A stretch of DNA of 64,000 nucleotides from Planctomycetota bacterium. Its GTDB lineage: Bacteria > Planctomycetota > UBA1135 > UBA2386. This document shows, in pieces, positions 2,656 to 13,190 of the stretch (position 1 is its first letter; each line of letters opens with the position of its first letter). Under the pieces are notes generated by a model, which saw only the letters and a program-made list of their open reading frames with translations, was not told where the DNA came from and did no database searches. A program made the translations under genes and the position numbers. The stretch is from contig OZ245006.1 of assembly GCA_965223545.1 (NCBI GenBank), forward strand, positions 3,904,001 through 3,968,000. The letters are read 5' to 3'.

Positions 2656-2863
2656 GTGAATCTCGTTGACAGTTCAGGCACGCACGGGGGATTCCCCGAA
2701 CAGAGCGTGCGCTCGAGCAACGCAGAAGCATACGCCGGCGCCGCAGCCGATTCGTTCCGAGAAACCCGGAACCGGGTCCTCGCAAACCCCTAAACGGGGG
2801 CGTCACTCCCGTCACGAGCGGGGAGCGCGCCCATCGGGGCCCCGTGGCAACGGGGCCACCCGA

Positions 2864-3622
2864 TCACGCCAGGGGCGCGACGCGATCCGCCAACAGCCTG
2901 GTGATGGCGTCGGCTTCGTGCACGATCTTGCCGTCGATCCAAAGGCCGGGAGCCTGGTCGTTGCCCGCCCGTCCGCGCAGCTCCGCTGCCGCCGCGGTGT
3001 CGTCGGAGACGTTGCAGACCTTCAAGCCCTGCACCCCGAGGTTGTCGGCAGCGACGCGCACCCGGCGCGATGGACCGCACTTGGACTTCACGTAGAGGCA
3101 CGCATCCGCGGGCAGCGCGCCGCCGGACGCGAGGCCCTGCGCGGCGCCCTGCGCGGCTTGCACCTCGGTGCAGACCGACAGCAAGTCGTCGACAGAGCGG
3201 TGGCCCGCGGGCGTCACCGACTCCGAGTAGCGGATGATCCCCTTCTTGTCGATCACGACAGTGGCCCGATCGGTGATCCCGGCGTCGGCCAGGTAGTGGC
3301 CGAAGCCCTGCGCCATGGCCCCCTTGGGCTCGAAGTCGGCGAGCAGCGGGAACGACACGCCACCGAGGTCACGCCCCCAGTTGGCGTGGCAGTGAACGCT
3401 GTCGATCGAGACACCGAGGACGTGGGTGTCGAGGGCGCGGAAGCGGTCCAGTGCAGACTGCACTGCGGGGACTTCCTGGCTTCAAGTCGGCGTCCAGTCG
3501 AGCGGGTAGAAGAGGAGCAGCACGTTCGCCTTGTCGCGAAACTGGGCGAGAGTGACCGTGCGGCCGAACTGATCCTGCAGGCTGAAGTCCGGCGCCTGCG
3601 AGCCGGTCTGAGTCATGGACAT
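2864..3622 (-). CDS. Selenocysteine-containing peroxiredoxin (U47) fused to a C-terminal glutaredoxin-like domain
   Basis: ATG at 3622 with GGAG RBS reads MSMTQTGSQAPDFSLQDQFGRTVTLAQFRDKANVLLLFYPLDWTPT-TGA(3484-3482)-SQEVPAVQ, in frame with track ORF 2864..3463. The TGA occupies the Cys of the Prx PxxxTxxC motif. GVSIDS, FPLLADF and DRATVVID follow, then a KSKCGPS...PGLWIDG Grx-like tail. Confidence 0.9.
3439..3476 (-). promoter_or_regulatory. Bacterial SECIS-like hairpin of the peroxiredoxin
   Basis: mRNA +17..+33 after UGA: CAGUGCA-GUC-UGCACUG (7-bp perfect stem, 3465-3449), with a possible lower stem GGAAG/CUUCC. Confidence 0.8.
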
Positions 3623-3664
3623 GGTTTCTCCAGAGTACGGTGTGGGGTTGGGAGGATCGCGCCT

Positions 3665-4105
3665 TCAAGCCGCGAGGTAGGCGTTGAGCATCCAGACGGT
3701 CTGCTCTTGTTCGTCGGCGAAGCCCTCGAGCAAGTTCGTGGTCGCCGCGTCTTCGGCCTCGCCGGCCGCGGCTGCCGCCGCCCGCAGGGCGGCGTTCAAC
3801 GTGGTGTAGTCGTCGCGCAACCGGACCACCATGTCGTTGGCAGCCGGGCTGCCACCATCCTCGCTCAGGCGAGTCACGGCGAGCACGTCCTTCATCGTGT
3901 AGAGCGGCCTGCCGCCGAGCGCCGCGATGCGCTCGGCCAGTCCGTCGATCTTGAGCGCGGCATCGTCGTAGAGCTCTTCGAACTTGGCGTGCAGCGCGAA
4001 GAAGTTGGGGCCGGCAACGGTCCAGTGGTAGCCCCGCAGCTTGTGGTAGAGCACCTGGTAGTCGGCGAGCAAGGCGTTGAGTTGGGCAGCGGTCGAGTCG
4101 GTCAT
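3665..4105 (-). CDS. dps: Dps DNA-protecting mini-ferritin
   Basis: ATG at 4105 with GAGGA RBS; YHWTVAGPNFFALHAKFEELYD and DGLAERI ferroxidase motifs; 146 aa. Confidence 0.93.
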   Translation of the reverse strand: MTDSTAAQLNALLADYQVLYHKLRGYHWTVAGPNFFALHAKFEELYDDAALKIDGLAERIAALGGRPLYTMKDVLAVTRLSEDGGSPAANDMVVRLRDDYTTLNAALRAAAAAAGEAEDAATTNLLEGFADEQEQTVWMLNAYLAA

Positions 4106-4164
4106 TTGGAGTCCTCGGGAATCAGGATCGAGAGCAGGATCGAACCAAAGCAGGCCGGATTCCA

Positions 4165-4201
4165 ATTGATTACCTTTACCCCTCTCATAACTTGTCCTTA
4201 T
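4165..4201. promoter_or_regulatory. OxyR-type operator between divergent dps and oxyR
   Basis: ATTG-N7-TTAC-N7-ATAA-N7-TTAT, matching the spacing and 11/16 positions of the OxyR consensus ATAG-N7-CTAT-N7-ATAG-N7-CTAT; overlaps the oxyR ATG. Confidence 0.8.
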
Positions 4202-5099
4202 GAATGAGGCACGCCCCAGTGTGCGCCAGCTGGAGTACCTGGTGGCGCTGGCCGAGACCCTCAACTTCGGCCGCGCCGCCGAGCGCTGCTTGGTCAGCCA
4301 ACCCGCGCTGAGCACGCAGATCCGGACTCTGGAGCAGCTCTTGGGAGCACCGCTGTTCGAGCGCGACCGACGCCGGGTGCTACCCACCGCCACGGGCCTG
4401 CGCGCCGCTGGGCAAGCCCGCGACGTGCTGCAGCGCATCGACGCGCTGGTGGAAGGGGCGCGCCACAGCCACCCCCTGTCGGGCGAGCTGCGTCTCGGGG
4501 TGATTCCGACCATCGCGCCGTACGTGCTGCCCAGGGTGGTGCCACGACTGACGCGACGGTTTCCCGATCTGCGCCTACAGCTGCGCGAGGACGAGACCGC
4601 GCGACTGGTCGAGCAACTCGAGCGCGGCACCCTCGACCTCTTGCTGGTCGCGCTGGAAGCTCCGCTGGGGGCCAACCAAACGCTCGAACTGTACCGGGAC
4701 TCGTTCGTGCTGATCGCGCCGCAGGACCACCGGCTCGCGGTGCAACGGACCGTCCGCGAAACCGATCTGGCGGGTCGCGATCTGCTGCTGCTCGAAGAAG
4801 GACATTGACTGCGACAGCAAGCGCTGGCGGTCTGCCAGCGGAGCGGCGCCGCTGAAACCACGGGGCTGCGGGCCACGAGCCTGCACACCCTGGTGCGCAT
4901 GGTCGGCGCCGGTGCGGGTGCGACGCTGTTGCCACAGATGGCGATCGCCACCGAAGTGCGCCGCGCCGACCGCATCACCCTGCGCCGCTTCAAACGCGAT
5001 GGCCCTCACCGGACCATCGGACTGTGCTGGCGGCCGAACTCCGCCCGCGCCGACGGATTTCGCGAGCTGGCGTCGGTGTTTCGCGACGCCAGCAGCTGA
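4200..5099 (+). CDS. oxyR: OxyR H2O2-sensing LysR regulator with selenocysteine (U203) at the sensing-cysteine position
   Basis: LysR HTH (RQLEYLVALAETLNFGRAAERCLVSQPALSTQI), GVIPTIAPY, then LEEGH-TGA(4806-4808)-LRQQALAVC and RATSLHTLVRMVGAGAGATLLP in frame to stop 5099 (299 aa). Aligns with E. coli OxyR LEDGHC199LRDQAMGFC208 and RATSLETLRNMVAAGSGITLLP. Confidence 0.9.
4822..4840 (+). promoter_or_regulatory. Bacterial SECIS-like hairpin of oxyR
   Basis: +14..+32 after UGA: CGCUGGC-GGUCU-GCCAGCG, 7-bp perfect stem; the GGUCU apex is also present in the E. coli fdhF SECIS (GCAGGUCUGC). Confidence 0.8.
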
Positions 5100-5113
5100 G
5101 GCCAACGCGACGC

Positions 5114-7330
5114 TCAGGACTCGCGGCCGGGTTTCGCGCTTCCCGAAGCCTTCGCAGCCGGCGAGGCCTTCGCGCCCGGCGTAGCCTTCGCGCCCGGCGG
5201 CGCTTGCGCGGCGGGGGCCGCCGGGGCCGGCGGCGGCGCGCTCGACCCGGCCGGTTTGGATGCCCCCTTCTTCTCCGGCTCGGATCGAGGAATCTGAAAG
5301 CTGTTCTCCACCGGCTGGGTGAGCATGAACAGATCCATCTGCGAGTAGTGCGCCGTGAGGCGCTCGATCGCCCCACGCGCGGCGACCGCCTGCTCGCGCA
5401 CGGCGTCGAACGGCTCGAGCAGCCGGCGGCCGTTGGCCAGTTCCGCCGCGACGACCGTGGCCTCACGCTCGATCTTGTCGCGCTGCTGGCGCAGCGCCTG
5501 CCGCACCGCCGTCGCCACCCGCTCGGTGTAGCCCCGCGCAAACCCCGCGACGATGCGATCGGTGGTCTCCTTGAAGAACGAGCGCTCGTACTCCGCCAGG
5601 CGCCGCGCCATCGCCTGCCGCGCAGGTTGGCCGAGGAACGCCTCCTTCTGCGCCGCCGAAAGGCGTTGGCCCGGGGCCTCGGCAGGGCCGAACAGGCGCT
5701 TGCGCAGACCGTTCTTGCTGCGCAGCAGGAGGCGGTCGTGCACGCGTGGCCGCAGCTCGACGTGATCCGTGCGCAACGGCGTGGGTGGCACCGCGACCAA
5801 CGCCGCGCGATCGGCGCCGCGATGGGCCGCGCGCCCGATCTCCTCCGCGTCGATCCCACATTCGGCCATCGCCGTGCGGATCTCCTCGGGAATCGCGAAG
5901 CCGACTCCGTCGTGCACCAAGCGCTCGCTCACTTCTTTGCTGATCGCGTTGATCAGCTCCTCTTGGTGCGTGGTCAAGCGCGGCACGAGCTCGCCCTTGA
6001 CCAACTGCTGGAAGCTCGCATCGCCGGCGAACCAGCTGCGCATGGCCTCGTGCAACGCGCGCGACGACCGCTCACCGACGTGCTGCGCAACGTCGCGGCT
6101 GGCCTCGTTGAGCTGATCACTGAGCGAGGCGAGTTGATCTTCCCAGCCAAAACCCTCGAGCCGCTCGATGGCCGCGAGACCGCGCTTGTGATGCTCACGG
6201 CGCTCGACCAGGCGGTCGATGCGCTTGCGCAATCGATTGATCTGCCCGTGGCCGGTGACGTCGACCGACTCCGTCAACAGCGTGCGCGCACGGCGCAGGC
6301 TGTCGCCCAAGAAGGCGACCATGTAGTCGGTGCTGTTGAGGTACTTGGTGAGGTCGTCGAAGAAGCGATCGAAGCCTCGCCGAGCGCCAGCGCCATCGTC
6401 GACGTTGCGGATCCTGGCGCTCGCCGCGCGTAGCAGATCGACCGGATAGATCCGCAGCCGACCGCTCTCGGCGGCCTGCTTGAGCGGCGCGGTCATCGCC
6501 AGATTCTCGAAGGCCTGCACGACACGCGTCGGATCGCGCTGCTCGAGGCTGGGCACCAACCGGCCGTCGGAGCTCAGATCTTGCTTGGTCGAATCGATGT
6601 TGACCAACAGGAAGATGCGGCTGAACAGCTCGAGCAGATCGGTGAACTCGGCGAACACCTGCTCCAAGAACAGATTGTCGCTGCGCACGACGAACACCGC
6701 GCAGGCGGCGGCGTTGCGGAAGTCGCGCGTCATCCGGCTGTAGCCGAATTTCATTCGGCTGTAGAGGCCGGGAGTATCGACCAGGATCGCCCGCGACTCG
6801 CCCAACCCACCGGCCGGCAGCTTGATGTCGATCCGATCGATGGCGCTGTGCAGGTGTTGGCGCGGATCGAACGTCTGGCCGGTGGCCTCGATCTCGCGGA
6901 TGCGCGCCGCCAGCTCCTCGTGTGCGGTGCCGACGAACTCCTCGAGCTTCTCCGCCGACTCGAACCTCTCGACGCGCCCGTCGTAGCGGCGCGCTTCGTA
7001 GCTGCGCCGACTGGCGTGCTGCACGAACACCATGCACGGATAGGCAGGCAGACTGCTGACTTCGCTCACGTAGCCGGCGGCGATGGCGTTCATCAGCGTC
7101 GACTTGCCGCTCTTCAGCGGGCCGAAGATCAAAACGTAGGCCTGCTGGTCGCGGACCTTGTTGCTCAACAGCTCGACCTGGCGCCGCAGATCGACGAGCG
7201 GTGTCTGGAGCGCTGCGGCCACGTCGCGCGGCGCCGAGGCAATGACCTCGGCGGCACGCCCCAGCGGCGCCTGCAACGGCCGAATGGTCCGGACGAACTC
7301 CTCGCAAAAACGGCTGAGAACAGTCTGCAT
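5114..7330 (-). CDS. Dynamin-like GTPase with helical C-terminus and low-complexity tail
   Basis: P-loop GPLKSGKST, ILVDTPG (G3), long helical region; tail with PGAKA-type repeats. Confidence 0.8.
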   Translation of the reverse strand: MQTVLSRFCEEFVRTIRPLQAPLGRAAEVIASAPRDVAAALQTPLVDLRRQVELLSNKVRDQQAYVLIFGPLKSGKSTLMNAIAAGYVSEVSSLPAYPCMVFVQHASRRSYEARRYDGRVERFESAEKLEEFVGTAHEELAARIREIEATGQTFDPRQHLHSAIDRIDIKLPAGGLGESRAILVDTPGLYSRMKFGYSRMTRDFRNAAACAVFVVRSDNLFLEQVFAEFTDLLELFSRIFLLVNIDSTKQDLSSDGRLVPSLEQRDPTRVVQAFENLAMTAPLKQAAESGRLRIYPVDLLRAASARIRNVDDGAGARRGFDRFFDDLTKYLNSTDYMVAFLGDSLRRARTLLTESVDVTGHGQINRLRKRIDRLVERREHHKRGLAAIERLEGFGWEDQLASLSDQLNEASRDVAQHVGERSSRALHEAMRSWFAGDASFQQLVKGELVPRLTTHQEELINAISKEVSERLVHDGVGFAIPEEIRTAMAECGIDAEEIGRAAHRGADRAALVAVPPTPLRTDHVELRPRVHDRLLLRSKNGLRKRLFGPAEAPGQRLSAAQKEAFLGQPARQAMARRLAEYERSFFKETTDRIVAGFARGYTERVATAVRQALRQQRDKIEREATVVAAELANGRRLLEPFDAVREQAVAARGAIERLTAHYSQMDLFMLTQPVENSFQIPRSEPEKKGASKPAGSSAPPPAPAAPAAQAPPGAKATPGAKASPAAKASGSAKPGRES

Positions 7331-8822: not shown

Positions 8823-9072
8823 TCCTGCCCCGGCAGATTTGTCGGCCCTTCAGGGCAGGAAACTAGCCGCTGAGGAAGGGGGAGGGGAACGTGTGAGGGG
8901 CCCGGCAGCTACGCCCCCAATAGCCACTGGAGCACGTTTGCCCCAGAGCCAGTCTGGGTCCGAGTTGGCCATCCTTCACTGGTGAGGGGCACGTCGCCGT
9001 GCCCACTCCCGCAGGTCAGATTCGTTTGATCGCCGCCTCGGGCCGGGCCCACCACAACAATGAGGATGAAGT
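8823..9072 (+). ncRNA. Candidate IS110 bridge/seek RNA region (non-coding end)
   Basis: Multiple hairpins; contains GAGCCAGTC (8946-8954), identical to the left junction 8816-8824, and CAGGTCAG (9012-9019), identical to the IS right end 10460-10467. RNA boundaries unknown. Confidence 0.6.
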
Positions 9073-10455
9073 ATGGCTGGGAAGAGCAGAACGAGGAAGG
9101 GCAAGAAGCCCGCAGCGGAAGTATTGCCAGTCGTGAAGCCCAACGCCGCCGGAATCGACATCGGCAGCCGCGAGCACTGGGTGTGCGCAGCAGCACCCGA
9201 CGGCAGTCGTCCGATCAAGCGATTCGGAACGACGACGCCCCAGCTAGAGGCGCTCGCGGACTGGCTGGAGGAGCTCGGAGTGCGATCCGTCGCGATGGAG
9301 AGCACCTATGTCTACTGGATTCCCGTCTACGAGCTACTCGAGTCGAGAGGCTTCGAGGTCATCCTCGCGAATGCCCGCGAGGTGAAGAACGTGCCGGGCC
9401 GCTCCAAGTCCGATGCCAGCGATTGCAGTTGGCTGCAGAAGCTACACACCTATGGCCTCATTCGCGCTTCGTTCCGGCCTCCGAAGGACATCTGTGCGTT
9501 GCGGACCCTGCAACGCCATGCCGCGTCTTTGATCGCGCAGCGCACGCGCCACACGCAGTTGATGCAGCGGTCACTGGATCAGATGAACGTGGCGATCCAT
9601 CGCGCGGTAACGGACATCACCGGCAAGACCGGCCTCGCGATCATCCGCGCGATTCTCGCTGGTGAACGCGACCCTCGAGCGCTCGCCAGACTGCGTGATC
9701 CGCGCTGCAAGATCTCCGAGAAGGAGCTCGCGGATCACTTGCAAGGGACCTGGATCGAGGAGCACATCTTCACTCTCGCTTCGGGCTTGCGGATGCTCGA
9801 GCACACCGACCACGAGATCGAGTCGGTCGAGAAGCGATTGATGGCGATGATCGAGGACCTGCAACCGGAGGAAGCCAAGACGGCTGACGTCCCCGAGCAT
9901 CCAGACCCCCGCAAGGAGAGGAGCATCCGAACGAAGGGCGGCCGGGAGCTTCGCGATGCCCTCTGCCGGCTCGTCGGGTGTGATCTCACGCGAATCGACG
10001 GTATCAGCCCGAGCACGGCCATGATCGTGCTCACCGAGGTCGGCTACGACCTCGATGCTTTCCCGACCGAGAAGCACTTCGTCTCCTGGCTACGCCTGTG
10101 CCCACGTCAAGCCGTCTCGGGTGGAAAGCGCATCAAGAAGCACCGCAACAACATCGCGGTCAGCAGGATCGCCACGGTCCTCCGGATGGCCGCCCTGTCC
10201 CTCCAACGTACTCAGACAGCTCTCGGCGCACACTTCCGCAAGATCGCCCGCGCGAAGGACGGCAACGTCGCCATCTTTGCCATCGCCCGCAAACTGGCCC
10301 TGCTCATCTACCGCATGCTGAAGTTCGGCCAGGACTACGTAGACGAAGGCGCCAAGGCCTACGAGGAGCGCTTCACCCAGCGACGCATCGTCGGACTCCG
10401 ACAGAACGCTAAATCCCTCGGGTACAAGCTCATACCGATCGTCGAGGCTGGGTGA
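9073..10455 (+). CDS. IS110-family recombinase/transposase
   Basis: DEDD RuvC-like motifs GIDIG, AMEST, KSDASD; C-terminal Tnp domain with IDGIS and VSGGK serine loop. Confidence 0.95.
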   Translation: MAGKSRTRKGKKPAAEVLPVVKPNAAGIDIGSREHWVCAAAPDGSRPIKRFGTTTPQLEALADWLEELGVRSVAMESTYVYWIPVYELLESRGFEVILANAREVKNVPGRSKSDASDCSWLQKLHTYGLIRASFRPPKDICALRTLQRHAASLIAQRTRHTQLMQRSLDQMNVAIHRAVTDITGKTGLAIIRAILAGERDPRALARLRDPRCKISEKELADHLQGTWIEEHIFTLASGLRMLEHTDHEIESVEKRLMAMIEDLQPEEAKTADVPEHPDPRKERSIRTKGGRELRDALCRLVGCDLTRIDGISPSTAMIVLTEVGYDLDAFPTEKHFVSWLRLCPRQAVSGGKRIKKHRNNIAVSRIATVLRMAALSLQRTQTALGAHFRKIARAKDGNVAIFAIARKLALLIYRMLKFGQDYVDEGAKAYEERFTQRRIVGLRQNAKSLGYKLIPIVEAG

Positions 10456-10531: not shown

Positions 10532-11533
10532 ATGCCCAGGACGACTCGGGTCGACTTCCCCGGAGCGTGGCATCACGTCGTGAACCGTGGCTTGGCGAAG
10601 AGGACCGTCTTCGAGAATCGCGCCGACATGCGTCGGTTCTTGGCCGGCCTCGCACGCGCCGTGCGTCGCGGAGAGATCGAGCTCCACAGCTACTGCCTGA
10701 TGACGACCCACTTTCACCTTCTTGTCTCGAGCCCGCGCGGTCTCCTTTCGACCGCGATGCGGCGAGTGGAGCAGAGCTACGTCCGTCGGTTCAACCGCCA
10801 GCGGCGCCGCGACGGGTCCTTGTTTCGCGGTCGGTTCTTTTCGAGGCCAGTCCACTCCGACGCGGACCGGAGAATCGTGGTGCGCTACATCGACCACAAT
10901 CCCGTGGCAGCGCGCGTCGTCGACGTGCCGACGGAGTATGAGTTCGGGAGCGCGTCTCGGTTCGCCTCCGACAGTGTTCCGCCGTGGCTCGCCATGGGGT
11001 GGATGCGTGACGTGCTTGCCGGTGCGGCGTTCGCGGGGCGATCCCGCGCCGAGACGTATCTGGATGCCTTCGGCGAGATCGGCGCCGATCACCGGCATTT
11101 GGTGCACCGGCGCATGGAGCACCGTCCTCGGGAAAGCGACCCTCTCGACGATCTCCTTGCCGCAGCTCCCGAGGCAGTGCGGCAATGGATGATGAGGAAG
11201 GCTCGCCTCGCCGACGGCAGCCGGCCGGGGTTGCCCCTCTTGGGCCCGAGATCCGCCATGTTGGCCTGTGCCGACGATCAGGCGCGACGTGGGCCCTGGT
11301 CCGTTGTGGTCCGCTCCCGTTCGCGCGACGCGTCGCGGCTGGCGCAGGTCTATCTGCTGCGCGATGGCTGCGGGTTCTCGTTTGCGGAGATCGCAAACCA
11401 ACAGGGGATTTCGCCGGCGACCGCAAGCCGGTGCTTCGACGCACACCTGGCAGCGATGAAGGAGGATCACGACTACGCGGCGCGGCTAGCGACCCTGGCG
11501 CAGGATGCCTTCAGGCGTTGTCATCAAAGGTGA
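10532..11533 (+). CDS. REP-associated tyrosine transposase (RAYT, Y1 HUH) with C-terminal HTH
   Basis: PGAWHHVVNRG, YCLMTTHFHLL (HUH), GSLFRGRF, VRYIDHNPV (catalytic Tyr); C-terminal SFAEIANQQGISPATAS HTH. Confidence 0.9.
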   Translation: MPRTTRVDFPGAWHHVVNRGLAKRTVFENRADMRRFLAGLARAVRRGEIELHSYCLMTTHFHLLVSSPRGLLSTAMRRVEQSYVRRFNRQRRRDGSLFRGRFFSRPVHSDADRRIVVRYIDHNPVAARVVDVPTEYEFGSASRFASDSVPPWLAMGWMRDVLAGAAFAGRSRAETYLDAFGEIGADHRHLVHRRMEHRPRESDPLDDLLAAAPEAVRQWMMRKARLADGSRPGLPLLGPRSAMLACADDQARRGPWSVVVRSRSRDASRLAQVYLLRDGCGFSFAEIANQQGISPATASRCFDAHLAAMKEDHDYAARLATLAQDAFRRCHQR

Positions 11534-11556: not shown

Positions 11557-12939
11557 TCACCCAGCCTCGACGATCGGTATGAGCTTGTACCCGAGGGATT
11601 TAGCGTTCTGTCGGAGTCCGACGATGCGTCGCTGGGTGAAGCGCTCCTCGTAGGCCTTGGCGCCTTCGTCTACGTAGTCCTGGCCGAACTTCAGCATGCG
11701 GTAGATGAGCAGGGCCAGTTTGCGGGCGATGGCAAAGATGGCGACGTTGCCGTCCTTCGCGCGGGCGATCTTGCGGAAGTGTGCGCCGAGAGCTGTCTGA
11801 GTACGTTGGAGGGACAGGGCGGCCATCCGGAGGACCGTGGCGATCCTGCTGACCGCGATGTTGTTGCGGTGCTTCTTGATGCGCTTTCCACCCGAGACGG
11901 CTTGACGTGGGCACAGGCGTAGCCAGGAGACGAAGTGCTTCTCGGTCGGGAAAGCATCGAGGTCGTAGCCGACCTCGGTGAGCACGATCATGGCCGTGCT
12001 CGGGCTGATACCGTCGATTCGCGTGAGATCACACCCGACGAGCCGGCAGAGGGCATCGCGAAGCTCCCGGCCGCCCTTCGTTCGGATGCTCCTCTCCTTG
12101 CGGGGGTCTGGATGCTCGGGGACGTCGGCCGTCTTGGCTTCCTCCGGTTGCAGGTCCTCGATCATCGCCATCAATCGCTTCTCGACCGACTCGATCTCGT
12201 GGTCGGTGTGCTCGAGCATCCGCAAGCCCGAAGCGAGAGTGAAGATGTGCTCCTCGATCCAGGTCCCTTGCAAGTGATCCGCGAGCTCCTTCTCGGAGAT
12301 CTTGCAGCGCGGATCACGCAGTCTGGCGAGCGCTCGAGGGTCGCGTTCACCAGCGAGAATCGCGCGGATGATCGCGAGGCCGGTCTTGCCGGTGATGTCC
12401 GTTACCGCGCGATGGATCGCCACGTTCATCTGATCCAGTGACCGCTGCATCAACTGCGTGTGGCGCGTGCGCTGCGCGATCAAAGACGCGGCATGGCGTT
12501 GCAGGGTCCGCAACGCACAGATGTCCTTCGGAGGCCGGAACGAAGCGCGAATGAGGCCATAGGTGTGTAGCTTCTGCAGCCAACTGCAATCGCTGGCATC
12601 GGACTTGGAGCGGCCCGGCACGTTCTTCACCTCGCGGGCATTCGCGAGGATGACCTCGAAGCCTCTCGACTCGAGTAGCTCGTAGACGGGAATCCAGTAG
12701 ACATAGGTGCTCTCCATCGCGACGGATCGCACTCCGAGCTCCTCCAGCCAGTCCGCGAGCGCCTCTAGTTGGGGCGTCGTCGTTCCGAATCGCTTGATCG
12801 GACGACTGCCGTCGGGTGCTGCTGCGCACACCCAGTGCTCGCGGCTGCCGATGTCGATTCCGGCGGCGTTGGGCTTCACGACTGGTAATACTTCCGCTGC
12901 GGGCTTCTTGCCCTTCCTCGTTCTGCCCTTCCGAGCCAT
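11557..12939 (-). CDS. IS110-family recombinase/transposase
   Basis: 460 aa, differs from copy 1 only at the N-terminus (MARKGR vs MAGKSR). Confidence 0.95.
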   Translation of the reverse strand: MARKGRTRKGKKPAAEVLPVVKPNAAGIDIGSREHWVCAAAPDGSRPIKRFGTTTPQLEALADWLEELGVRSVAMESTYVYWIPVYELLESRGFEVILANAREVKNVPGRSKSDASDCSWLQKLHTYGLIRASFRPPKDICALRTLQRHAASLIAQRTRHTQLMQRSLDQMNVAIHRAVTDITGKTGLAIIRAILAGERDPRALARLRDPRCKISEKELADHLQGTWIEEHIFTLASGLRMLEHTDHEIESVEKRLMAMIEDLQPEEAKTADVPEHPDPRKERSIRTKGGRELRDALCRLVGCDLTRIDGISPSTAMIVLTEVGYDLDAFPTEKHFVSWLRLCPRQAVSGGKRIKKHRNNIAVSRIATVLRMAALSLQRTQTALGAHFRKIARAKDGNVAIFAIARKLALLIYRMLKFGQDYVDEGAKAYEERFTQRRIVGLRQNAKSLGYKLIPIVEAG

Positions 12940-13190
12940 ACTTCATCCTCCTTGTTGTGGTGGGCCCGGCCCGAGGCGGCGATCAAACGAATCTGACCTG
13001 CGGGAGTGGGCACGGCGACGTGCCCCTCACCAGTGAAGGATGGCCAACTCGGACCCAGACTGGCTCTGGGGCAAACGTGCTCCAGTGGCTATTGGGGGCG
13101 TAGCTGCCGGGCCCCTCACACGTTCCCCGCCCCCTTCCTCAGCGGCTAGTTTCCTGCCCTGAAGGGCCGACAAAATCTGTCGGGGCAGGA
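12940..13190 (-). ncRNA. Candidate IS110 bridge/seek RNA region, copy 2
   Basis: Same structured non-coding end as 8823-9072, with both guide-like matches conserved. Confidence 0.6.

Follow-up and report, generated by a model that had tools for sequence, protein, structure and literature searches.

The oxyR gene in the window analysed here, the whole stretch of 64,000 nucleotides from a Planctomycetota bacterium (contig OZ245006.1, positions 3,904,001 to 3,968,000), very probably encodes a selenoprotein form of the peroxide sensor OxyR, and sequence comparison points to the same form in at least 23 genomes. In this window, oxyR and a peroxiredoxin gene (prx) each contain one in-frame TGA, located at the position of the catalytic cysteine and followed by a hairpin; the favored interpretation, with a probability of about 0.88, is that both hairpins are standard selenocysteine insertion sequence (SECIS) elements and that oxyR encodes a selenoprotein regulator with selenocysteine (Sec) predicted at the Cys199 sensing site. 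The position of the UGA, the Sec machinery of the genome, the recurrence across phyla, the stem specific to the Sec forms, the OxyR pocket and the gene neighborhood are read directly from the sequence. The nine letters GC[A/G]GUCUGC shared by both hairpins, taken by a first-pass annotation of this DNA for a lineage-specific recognition element of SelB, do not constitute a lineage code, and each hairpin is a UGA-to-Sec signal of the usual bacterial kind.

In the 299 amino acids (aa) encoded by oxyR (4200..5099, plus strand), position 203, read as Sec, corresponds to the peroxide-sensing residue and Cys212 to the resolving cysteine, as assigned from profile, structure and alignment matches. The in-frame UGA (4806..4808, plus strand), in the context LEEGH-U-LRQQALAVC, aligns with the sensing cysteine of Corynebacterium glutamicum OxyR, that is, with the residue mutated to serine in the C206S structures. 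The protein contains the LysR helix-turn-helix and substrate domains and is closest to OxyR by both sequence and fold: OxyR is the best NCBIfam family (E 9e-81, 271.4 bits), leading by 28 orders of magnitude in E-value, all 11 solved structures matched at E<=1e-30 are OxyR entries by name, and the top 10 fold matches of a predicted model (pLDDT 88, with U folded as C) are OxyR as well. The pocket residues described for OxyR, Thr100, Thr129, His198, Cys199 and Arg270 (PMC7231847), correspond to T104, T133, H202, U203 and R271, together with C212, the equivalent of residue 199 being Sec and not Cys; across 11 Sec forms, T104, H202, C212 and R271 do not vary at all and T133 hardly does. Compared with the OxyR proteins of Escherichia coli (1i69/1i6a), Pseudomonas aeruginosa (4x6g) and C. 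glutamicum (6g1b), the window protein shares the domain composition, the G-H-x-L motif, the resolving cysteine nine residues on, the Thr/Thr/His/Arg pocket and the divergent orientation relative to peroxide-defense genes, and differs in that its sensing residue is encoded by a UGA with a SECIS. A LysR fold with a link to selenium is also found in LysR_Se/HrsM (NF040786); those proteins, however, are reported to regulate selenium genes and do not appear in the selenoprotein table, and the window protein scores 123 bits on LysR_Se versus 271 on OxyR.

Both hairpins agree with the published model of bacterial SECIS elements (bSECISearch, PMC13188914), in which a G occupies loop position 1 or 2, often followed by G or U, in a loop of 3-9 nt on a stem of 4-16 bp, with the loop 16-37 nt past the UGA; the criteria applied here, taken from the same source, were a loop of 3-9 nt located at +16-37 nt, a stem of >=4 bp and an energy of <= -7.5 kcal/mol. 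The oxyR hairpin (4822..4840, plus strand), found by RNA folding, has a 7-bp stem and the loop GGUCU (4829-4833), which starts at +21, and an energy of -12.5 kcal/mol; it reads CGCTGGC[GGTCT]GCCAGCG at +14..+32, as the first-pass annotation had stated. The description of the prx hairpin given there, CAGTGC[AGTCT]GCACTG at +17..+33 (3465-3449), was likewise accurate; the whole folded hairpin (3439..3476, minus strand) comprises this upper stem, with the apical loop AGUCU (or GUC) at +23/+24 and an energy of -7.7/-8.1 kcal/mol, and a lower stem in which 3476-3471 pairs with 3444-3439. In both genes the UGA stands where homologues have cysteine (TGC or TGT in 89 oxyR homologues, and Cys in two paralogues for prx), which adds to the support for the two hairpins as SECIS elements. 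Relative to the prototype, the apex GCAGGTCTGC of E. coli fdhF (NC_000913.3), both window hairpins fit the consensus in-frame, but their loops are of the five-base RGUCU type and the apex is one G shorter, as previously noted; in addition, the oxyR loop and 3' arm share bases with the codons for Val and the resolving cysteine, the Cys212 codon (TGC, 4833-4835) beginning with the final base of the loop and contributing its other two bases to the start of the 3' arm. An Rfam scan of the window returned nothing at gathering scores.

The OxyR proteins of related genomes are free of stops (0 of the 20 relatives, among 60, that have an OxyR match), and a private nonsense mutation therefore had to be excluded. 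A first DNA pattern, L-[DE]-[DE]-G-H-TGA-L-R-x-Q, gave 20 matches in genomes, 18 of which are OxyR with 40-60% identity, a single TGA at the sensing cysteine and 93-108 open residues past it, and 19 matches in metagenome contigs, all of them OxyR; a second pattern gave 99 matches, of which 20 are OxyR and 4 of these represent new genomes. The remaining two first-pattern matches (L107 and L115) and 79 second-pattern matches were set aside as non-OxyR by blastp. In total, the UGA-containing oxyR was identified in 22 other genomes and 19 metagenome contigs, that is, in at least 23 genomes with the present one; by their labels, the 22 carriers belong to Planctomycetota, Myxococcota, Binatota, Tectimicrobiota and Actinomycetota. 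The selA gene is present in 21 of the 22 carriers (17 of the first 18 and all four new ones), the remaining one having selB, versus 4 of 24 control genomes, drawn from 71 Cys-OxyR loci that are mostly from Pseudomonadota and not matched by phylum. One carrier marked as unpublished (G074, locus L119) is counted in the 18 of 20, the 22, the 17 of 18 and the 28 of 38 given below, and no conclusion hinges on this locus. In a tree of 120 rows, obtained by quick search and excluding L119 and six short rows, the Sec and Cys labels change 9 times versus 30 when shuffled; the well-supported branches are compatible with one origin, and no claim on a single or repeated origin is therefore made.

Evidence for selection at the RNA level comes from the stem of the oxyR hairpin, scored on its four inner pairs with the loop fixed at +21..+25 (3 of 92 Cys loci could not be read by the pattern). 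All four are kept in 28 of 38 Sec sequences versus 3 of 89 Cys sequences. Two subsets served as a control for protein sequence: among distinct Val-Cys sequences, L119 excluded, 22 of 23 Sec versus 3 of 31 Cys forms retain the stem, and among Ala-Val-Cys sequences all 18 Sec versus 3 of 11 Cys forms do. Within the Sec forms, the Leu codon varies with the residue after the cysteine, CTG accompanying Gln CAG and CTC accompanying Glu or Gly. Over 32 distinct rows, one pair occurs as C-G (19), G-C (8) and U-A (1), and another as G-C (19), A-U (4) and G-U (3); double-sided, compensatory changes are found at three stem pairs. Covariation reached 0.254, versus 0.164 in shuffled alignments (0 of 500 shuffles attain the observed value) and at most 0.126 when the stem was slid, and in the four genomes found last, which had not been used in defining the stem, the four pairs and the N-G-U loop are present in 4 of 4. 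Selection on the RNA is seen in the stem and not in the nine-letter motif.

The Sec machinery is complete in this 8.1-Mb genome of 70% GC, in which the window lies on contig C1: selA, selB and selD, the last with its own in-frame TGA, score above curated cut-offs, and tRNA-Sec (selC) is also present. selA lies directly upstream of selD (C1:1263900-1266329, minus strand), with selB and tRNA-Sec elsewhere (7.66 and 7.95 Mb). To obtain Sec codons independently of the motif, TGAs were scored for coding potential on both sides with a hexamer model trained on this genome, giving motif-blind lists of 270 and 207 entries, from which 40 regions were hand-picked by amino-acid context (fdhA after blastp) and scanned; 28 were accepted, with a family match spanning the UGA, and these, together with selD, prx and oxyR, form a set of 31 Sec codons. 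Of these, 14 align to Cys in a paralogue, and the others depend on the family match and known motifs, a carboxypeptidase-regulatory-like domain being a weak member. Among the other scanned regions, four (L132, L137, L138 and L160) were rejected as gene junctions, two (L140 and L165) as unsupported, and L139 (C1:7678676, plus strand) as a probably broken IS481 transposase gene, whose in-frame TGA is not accompanied by a hairpin resembling a SECIS; five (L133, L135, L147, L161 and L164) were kept as possible.

Several observations weigh against a selenoprotein OxyR with a standard SECIS. A minority of Sec forms (the Ser-Leu-Cys type and a few others) is outside the 28 of 38 with the fixed stem; several of these have another N-G-U hairpin a few bases downstream. 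A rule allowing no bulge gives a hairpin with a G loop in 30 of 37 Sec forms but also in 19 of 89 Cys forms, the outermost stem pair is formed in 8 of the 32 rows only, and two of five covariation measures fail to beat the shuffles, with kinship inflating the others. The contrast of 21/22 versus 4/24 for selA overstates the link, as the controls differ in phylum from the carriers, and selA is present in 19 of the 20 relatives, whose OxyR stays open and stop-free. All named carriers are metagenome-assembled genomes. The OxyR score of 271.4 bits is under the cut-off of the NCBIfam equivalog PRK11151 (329), which lowers the case for an E. coli-type equivalog and not that for an OxyR-like sensor. 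Finally, the loops of prx orthologues in related genomes are mostly without N-G-U, which means that the loop rule does not hold throughout this lineage.

It is very unlikely, given the data above, that the UGA is a real stop and oxyR a pseudogene or a deliberate regulator of 202 aa, the hairpin being a by-product of the GC-rich Ala-Val-Cys codons. A single change would convert TGC to TGA, the OxyR proteins of the relatives are stop-free, the nine-letter motif also occurs in three Cys genes, and public collections carry the Sec-oxyR genes as products of 200-202 aa (four of four looked up). Nevertheless, 23 genomes, each of them equipped with Sec genes, have the change at the same codon, and the roughly 95 residues past the UGA are open and conserved; a pattern scan for a TGA at the resolving cysteine, intended as a control for nonsense mutation, gave one match, which is non-OxyR, and no such OxyR was found. 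Moreover, the stem tracks the UGA, and the UGA gene is the sole OxyR match at E<=1e-40 in 15 of the 17 carriers searched, as it is at E<=1e-30 in the present genome. The truncated 200-aa public annotation is probably wrong. In one carrier (G073, contigs C83 and C39) the Sec-OxyR is accompanied by a stop-free OxyR of similar score, possibly a selenium-free backup arrangement.

A full-length OxyR could also be made without selenium, if the UGA were read as Cys or Trp by a near-cognate tRNA or under an alternative code. A stable hairpin past a stop can promote read-through, and the residue at position 203 is a prediction from sequence, both of which speak for this explanation. On the other side, TGA ends 4,456 of the 6,017 called genes and is therefore not reassigned, the sole tRNA with a TCA anticodon that was found is tRNA-Sec, and the loop matches the SelB consensus, so that read-through as Cys or Trp is considered extremely improbable. 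A selenoprotein OxyR, with Sec inserted at position 203, remains the preferred interpretation.

As for the shared nine letters, the first-pass annotation had proposed that GC[A/G]GUCUGC is the sequence recognized by the SelB of this lineage and that it can be used to find the selenoproteome. The motif is located at +21..+29 (3461-3453) in prx and at +19..+27 (4827-4835) in oxyR, in different reading phases, and it is rare after ordinary stops, as had been anticipated: none of 4,036 gene-ending TGAs is followed by it. Genome-wide it occurs 480 times, and at +15..+26 behind 53 of 135,842 TGA triplets, of which three have coding potential on both sides, those of oxyR, prx and an AhpD-like gene (CHY-U), a third selenoprotein gene picked out by the motif. 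Also in line with that proposal, GGUC is the most frequent loop start (10 of 27 loops listed), and the loop of fdhA is GGUCU, identical to that of oxyR, with a different stem pair. Nevertheless, 28 of the 31 Sec codons lack the motif and three have it and, since oxyR and prx had defined it, its independent success is 1 of the 29 others; neither the UGA of selD (loop CGGGC) nor that of fdhA (CC-GGUCU-GG) is followed by it, the very absence that had been named as grounds for abandoning the proposal, and it is missing from all 10 prx orthologues of the relatives, all of which keep the TGA. It occurs in 4 of 38 Sec-oxyR versus 3 of 89 Cys-oxyR sequences (Fisher p 0.2). The strict form of the proposal is already refuted, and a SelB code of this kind that marks the selenoproteome is judged highly improbable; as a probe for selenoproteins the motif is specific yet very insensitive, missing nine in ten. 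The accompanying argument, that protein constraint cannot explain the shared letters, was half right, since in oxyR they spell GCG GTC TGC (Ala-Val-Cys), as they also do in 3 of 89 Cys-type genes, whereas selection at the RNA level is visible in the stem. The motif itself is of little importance, being a single instance of a known consensus.

The common core of the hairpins is the N-G-U apical loop, that is, the published bacterial SECIS consensus. An unbulged stem with an N-G-U loop start follows 23 of the 31 Sec codons versus 365 of 4,036 stops, an R-G-U-C loop start 12 of 31 versus 64 of 4,036, and a wider G-[G/U] loop 26 of 31 versus 1,212 of 4,036; as these rules were set after the loops had been seen, the contrasts are descriptive. 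The prx apex is not conserved, the orthologues in related genomes (L188-L197) using another, longer hairpin common to them (-18 to -26 kcal/mol), with loops mostly lacking the G-U of the consensus, which is possibly a non-canonical SECIS class.

The mechanism proposed here combines two established elements, the reading of the hairpin by SelB with Sec-tRNA, by which Sec is inserted, and the oxidation of the OxyR sensing residue by hydrogen peroxide (H2O2) followed by its joining to the resolving cysteine. SelB carrying Sec-tRNA would bind the small apical loop, with G-U after one free base and about 20 nt past the UGA; the prx hairpin would yield a known kind of Sec-peroxiredoxin, and that of oxyR a selenoprotein transcription factor in which Sec203 replaces the sensing Cys199. 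H2O2 would then oxidize Sec203 to the selenenic acid. The acid would react with Cys212 to give a selenenyl-sulfide, the counterpart of the Cys199-Cys208 disulfide, and this bond would switch the regulator at the box that lies between the divergent oxyR and dps-prx genes, and at other defense genes also. Density functional theory calculations indicate that Sec is favored both thermodynamically and kinetically in the OxyR pocket (PMC7231847), so faster or more sensitive peroxide sensing by the Sec form is plausible. Regarding the origin of the SECIS, the OxyR helix already encodes x-Val-Cys, and its codons therefore give the N-G-U-N-U loop for free; only the stem would have had to be gained, through the choice of codons and residues. 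Under selenium shortage, the expected product would be a protein of 202 aa that ends before the resolving cysteine and lacks the final third of the regulatory domain, and since this is the sole OxyR identified in the genome the regulon would depend on selenium. That Sec-OxyR, over at least five phyla, senses H2O2 by a selenol and at the same time reports selenium supply, gating the peroxide regulon, is a speculative extension with somewhat less than an even chance of being correct; if true, the stop at codon 203 in the absence of Sec would tie this regulon, including the Sec-peroxiredoxin two genes away, to the capacity for making selenoenzymes.

OxyR is a textbook thiol switch. A 2020 computational study stated that Sec variants of OxyR had not yet been discovered (PMC7231847), and the prokaryotic selenoprotein catalogue tables, in the portions covered, consist nearly entirely of enzymes or redox/metal proteins and include no LysR regulators. 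An OxyR or LysR selenoprotein is absent from the whole of Table 1 of PMC9312934, and the terms OxyR and LysR are absent from the main text and four supplements of PMC12013277, from the main text of PMC13188914 with part of its table section, and from the main text of PMC13326102 and its one supplement, which is possibly incomplete in the form available. The 25 NCBIfam families listed, out of 52, include no model for a seleno-OxyR. The families of Haft and Tolstoy (2025) were covered as they appear in part of a 2026 review table. Phrase searches, and broader searches in the titles and abstract openings listed, returned no report of a Sec-OxyR. No description of the Sec-OxyR form was found in the 2022-2026 catalogues searched. 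The natural Sec/Cys OxyR pairs (50-60% identity) allow a direct test of the role of selenium in rate, threshold, reversibility and over-oxidation, and of selenium supply as a gate of the stress regulon, and the Sec-OxyRs show how a SECIS can arise within a conserved helix.

The other genes of the locus agree with a function in peroxide defense. The prx gene (2864..3622, minus strand) encodes, when TGA is translated as U, a protein of 252 aa composed of a peroxiredoxin (Pfam AhpC-TSA, 7-132) and a C-terminal glutaredoxin-like domain (Pfam Glutaredoxin, 176-234); its UGA (3482..3484, minus strand) corresponds to Sec47, aligned to Cys in two paralogues of the same genome, and the context PLDWTPT-U contains the PxxxTxxU motif that, together with the AhpC/TSA domain, characterizes Sec-peroxiredoxins. 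The best NCBIfam family is PrxU (NF040737), known from Eubacterium acidaminophilum, with which it shares this motif, but the score of 80.6 bits is below the cut-off of 270, and the window protein differs by its fusion to a glutaredoxin-like domain with one Cys. That domain (2864-3110, minus strand) has a single cysteine (SKCGPS) in place of the usual CxxC, and 7 of 10 prx matches in relatives also span the peroxiredoxin-glutaredoxin fusion. The dps gene (3665..4105, minus strand; 146 aa) precedes prx in the same orientation and points away from oxyR; it was assigned by NCBIfam Dps/DpsA matches that are under the cut-off (E 1.6e-18), and its ends were taken from the sequence. A box-like site, ATTG-N7-TTAC-N7-ATAA-N7-TTAT (4165..4201, no strand assigned), overlaps the oxyR start codon and agrees at 11 of 16 positions with the OxyR-box consensus; it is one of 78 sites scoring at least 11 on contig C1 and is weak alone, and a genome scan with this consensus does not discriminate. 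Most Sec-oxyR homologues have a comparable box a short distance before the start. The related-locus search patterns spelled Cys, and hence returned Cys forms alone. In 14 carrier loci, with 33 neighboring frames scanned, peroxide-defense neighbors were found in 10, including dps-like ferritin (3), haem peroxidase of the katG type (3), Prx-Grx (3) and ahpC/ahpD (2). The region 2800-5200 is identical in contigs from two runs of one sample, probably the source of the assembly, which makes a simple consensus error untenable but does not count as independent support; two other contigs (X4 and X5) yielded short pieces alone.

The selenoproteome of this genome is large, with about 30 genes, including thioredoxin-fold proteins, two deiodinase-like, two Bcp, two AhpD-like and two SelW-like proteins, MsrA, an ArsC-like protein, HMA, DUF3179, a VPGU protein with two Sec, FdhA and SelD. 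Among the regions kept as possible, L161 (C1:1761657-1762322, minus strand) is a frame of 222 aa with two in-frame UGAs (DGGG-U-GATA and PKPL-U-AASA), each followed by a stem with the loop CGUGC, and without a Pfam or NCBIfam match; it is possibly an uncatalogued double selenoprotein. Three more in-frame UGAs, L133 (C1:492917, plus strand; FNNW-U-C in an FG-GAP protein), L135 (6151628, plus strand; PLGCT-U-N) and L147 (6247186, minus strand; IDGFL-U-S), have strong N-G-U hairpins and no family spanning the UGA, and may represent new selenoproteins. Elsewhere in the window, two near-identical transposase-like frames in opposite orientation, at about 8900-10230 (plus strand) and 11780-13100 (minus strand), presumably IS110-like by their motif, flank another transposase-like frame at 10532-11533.

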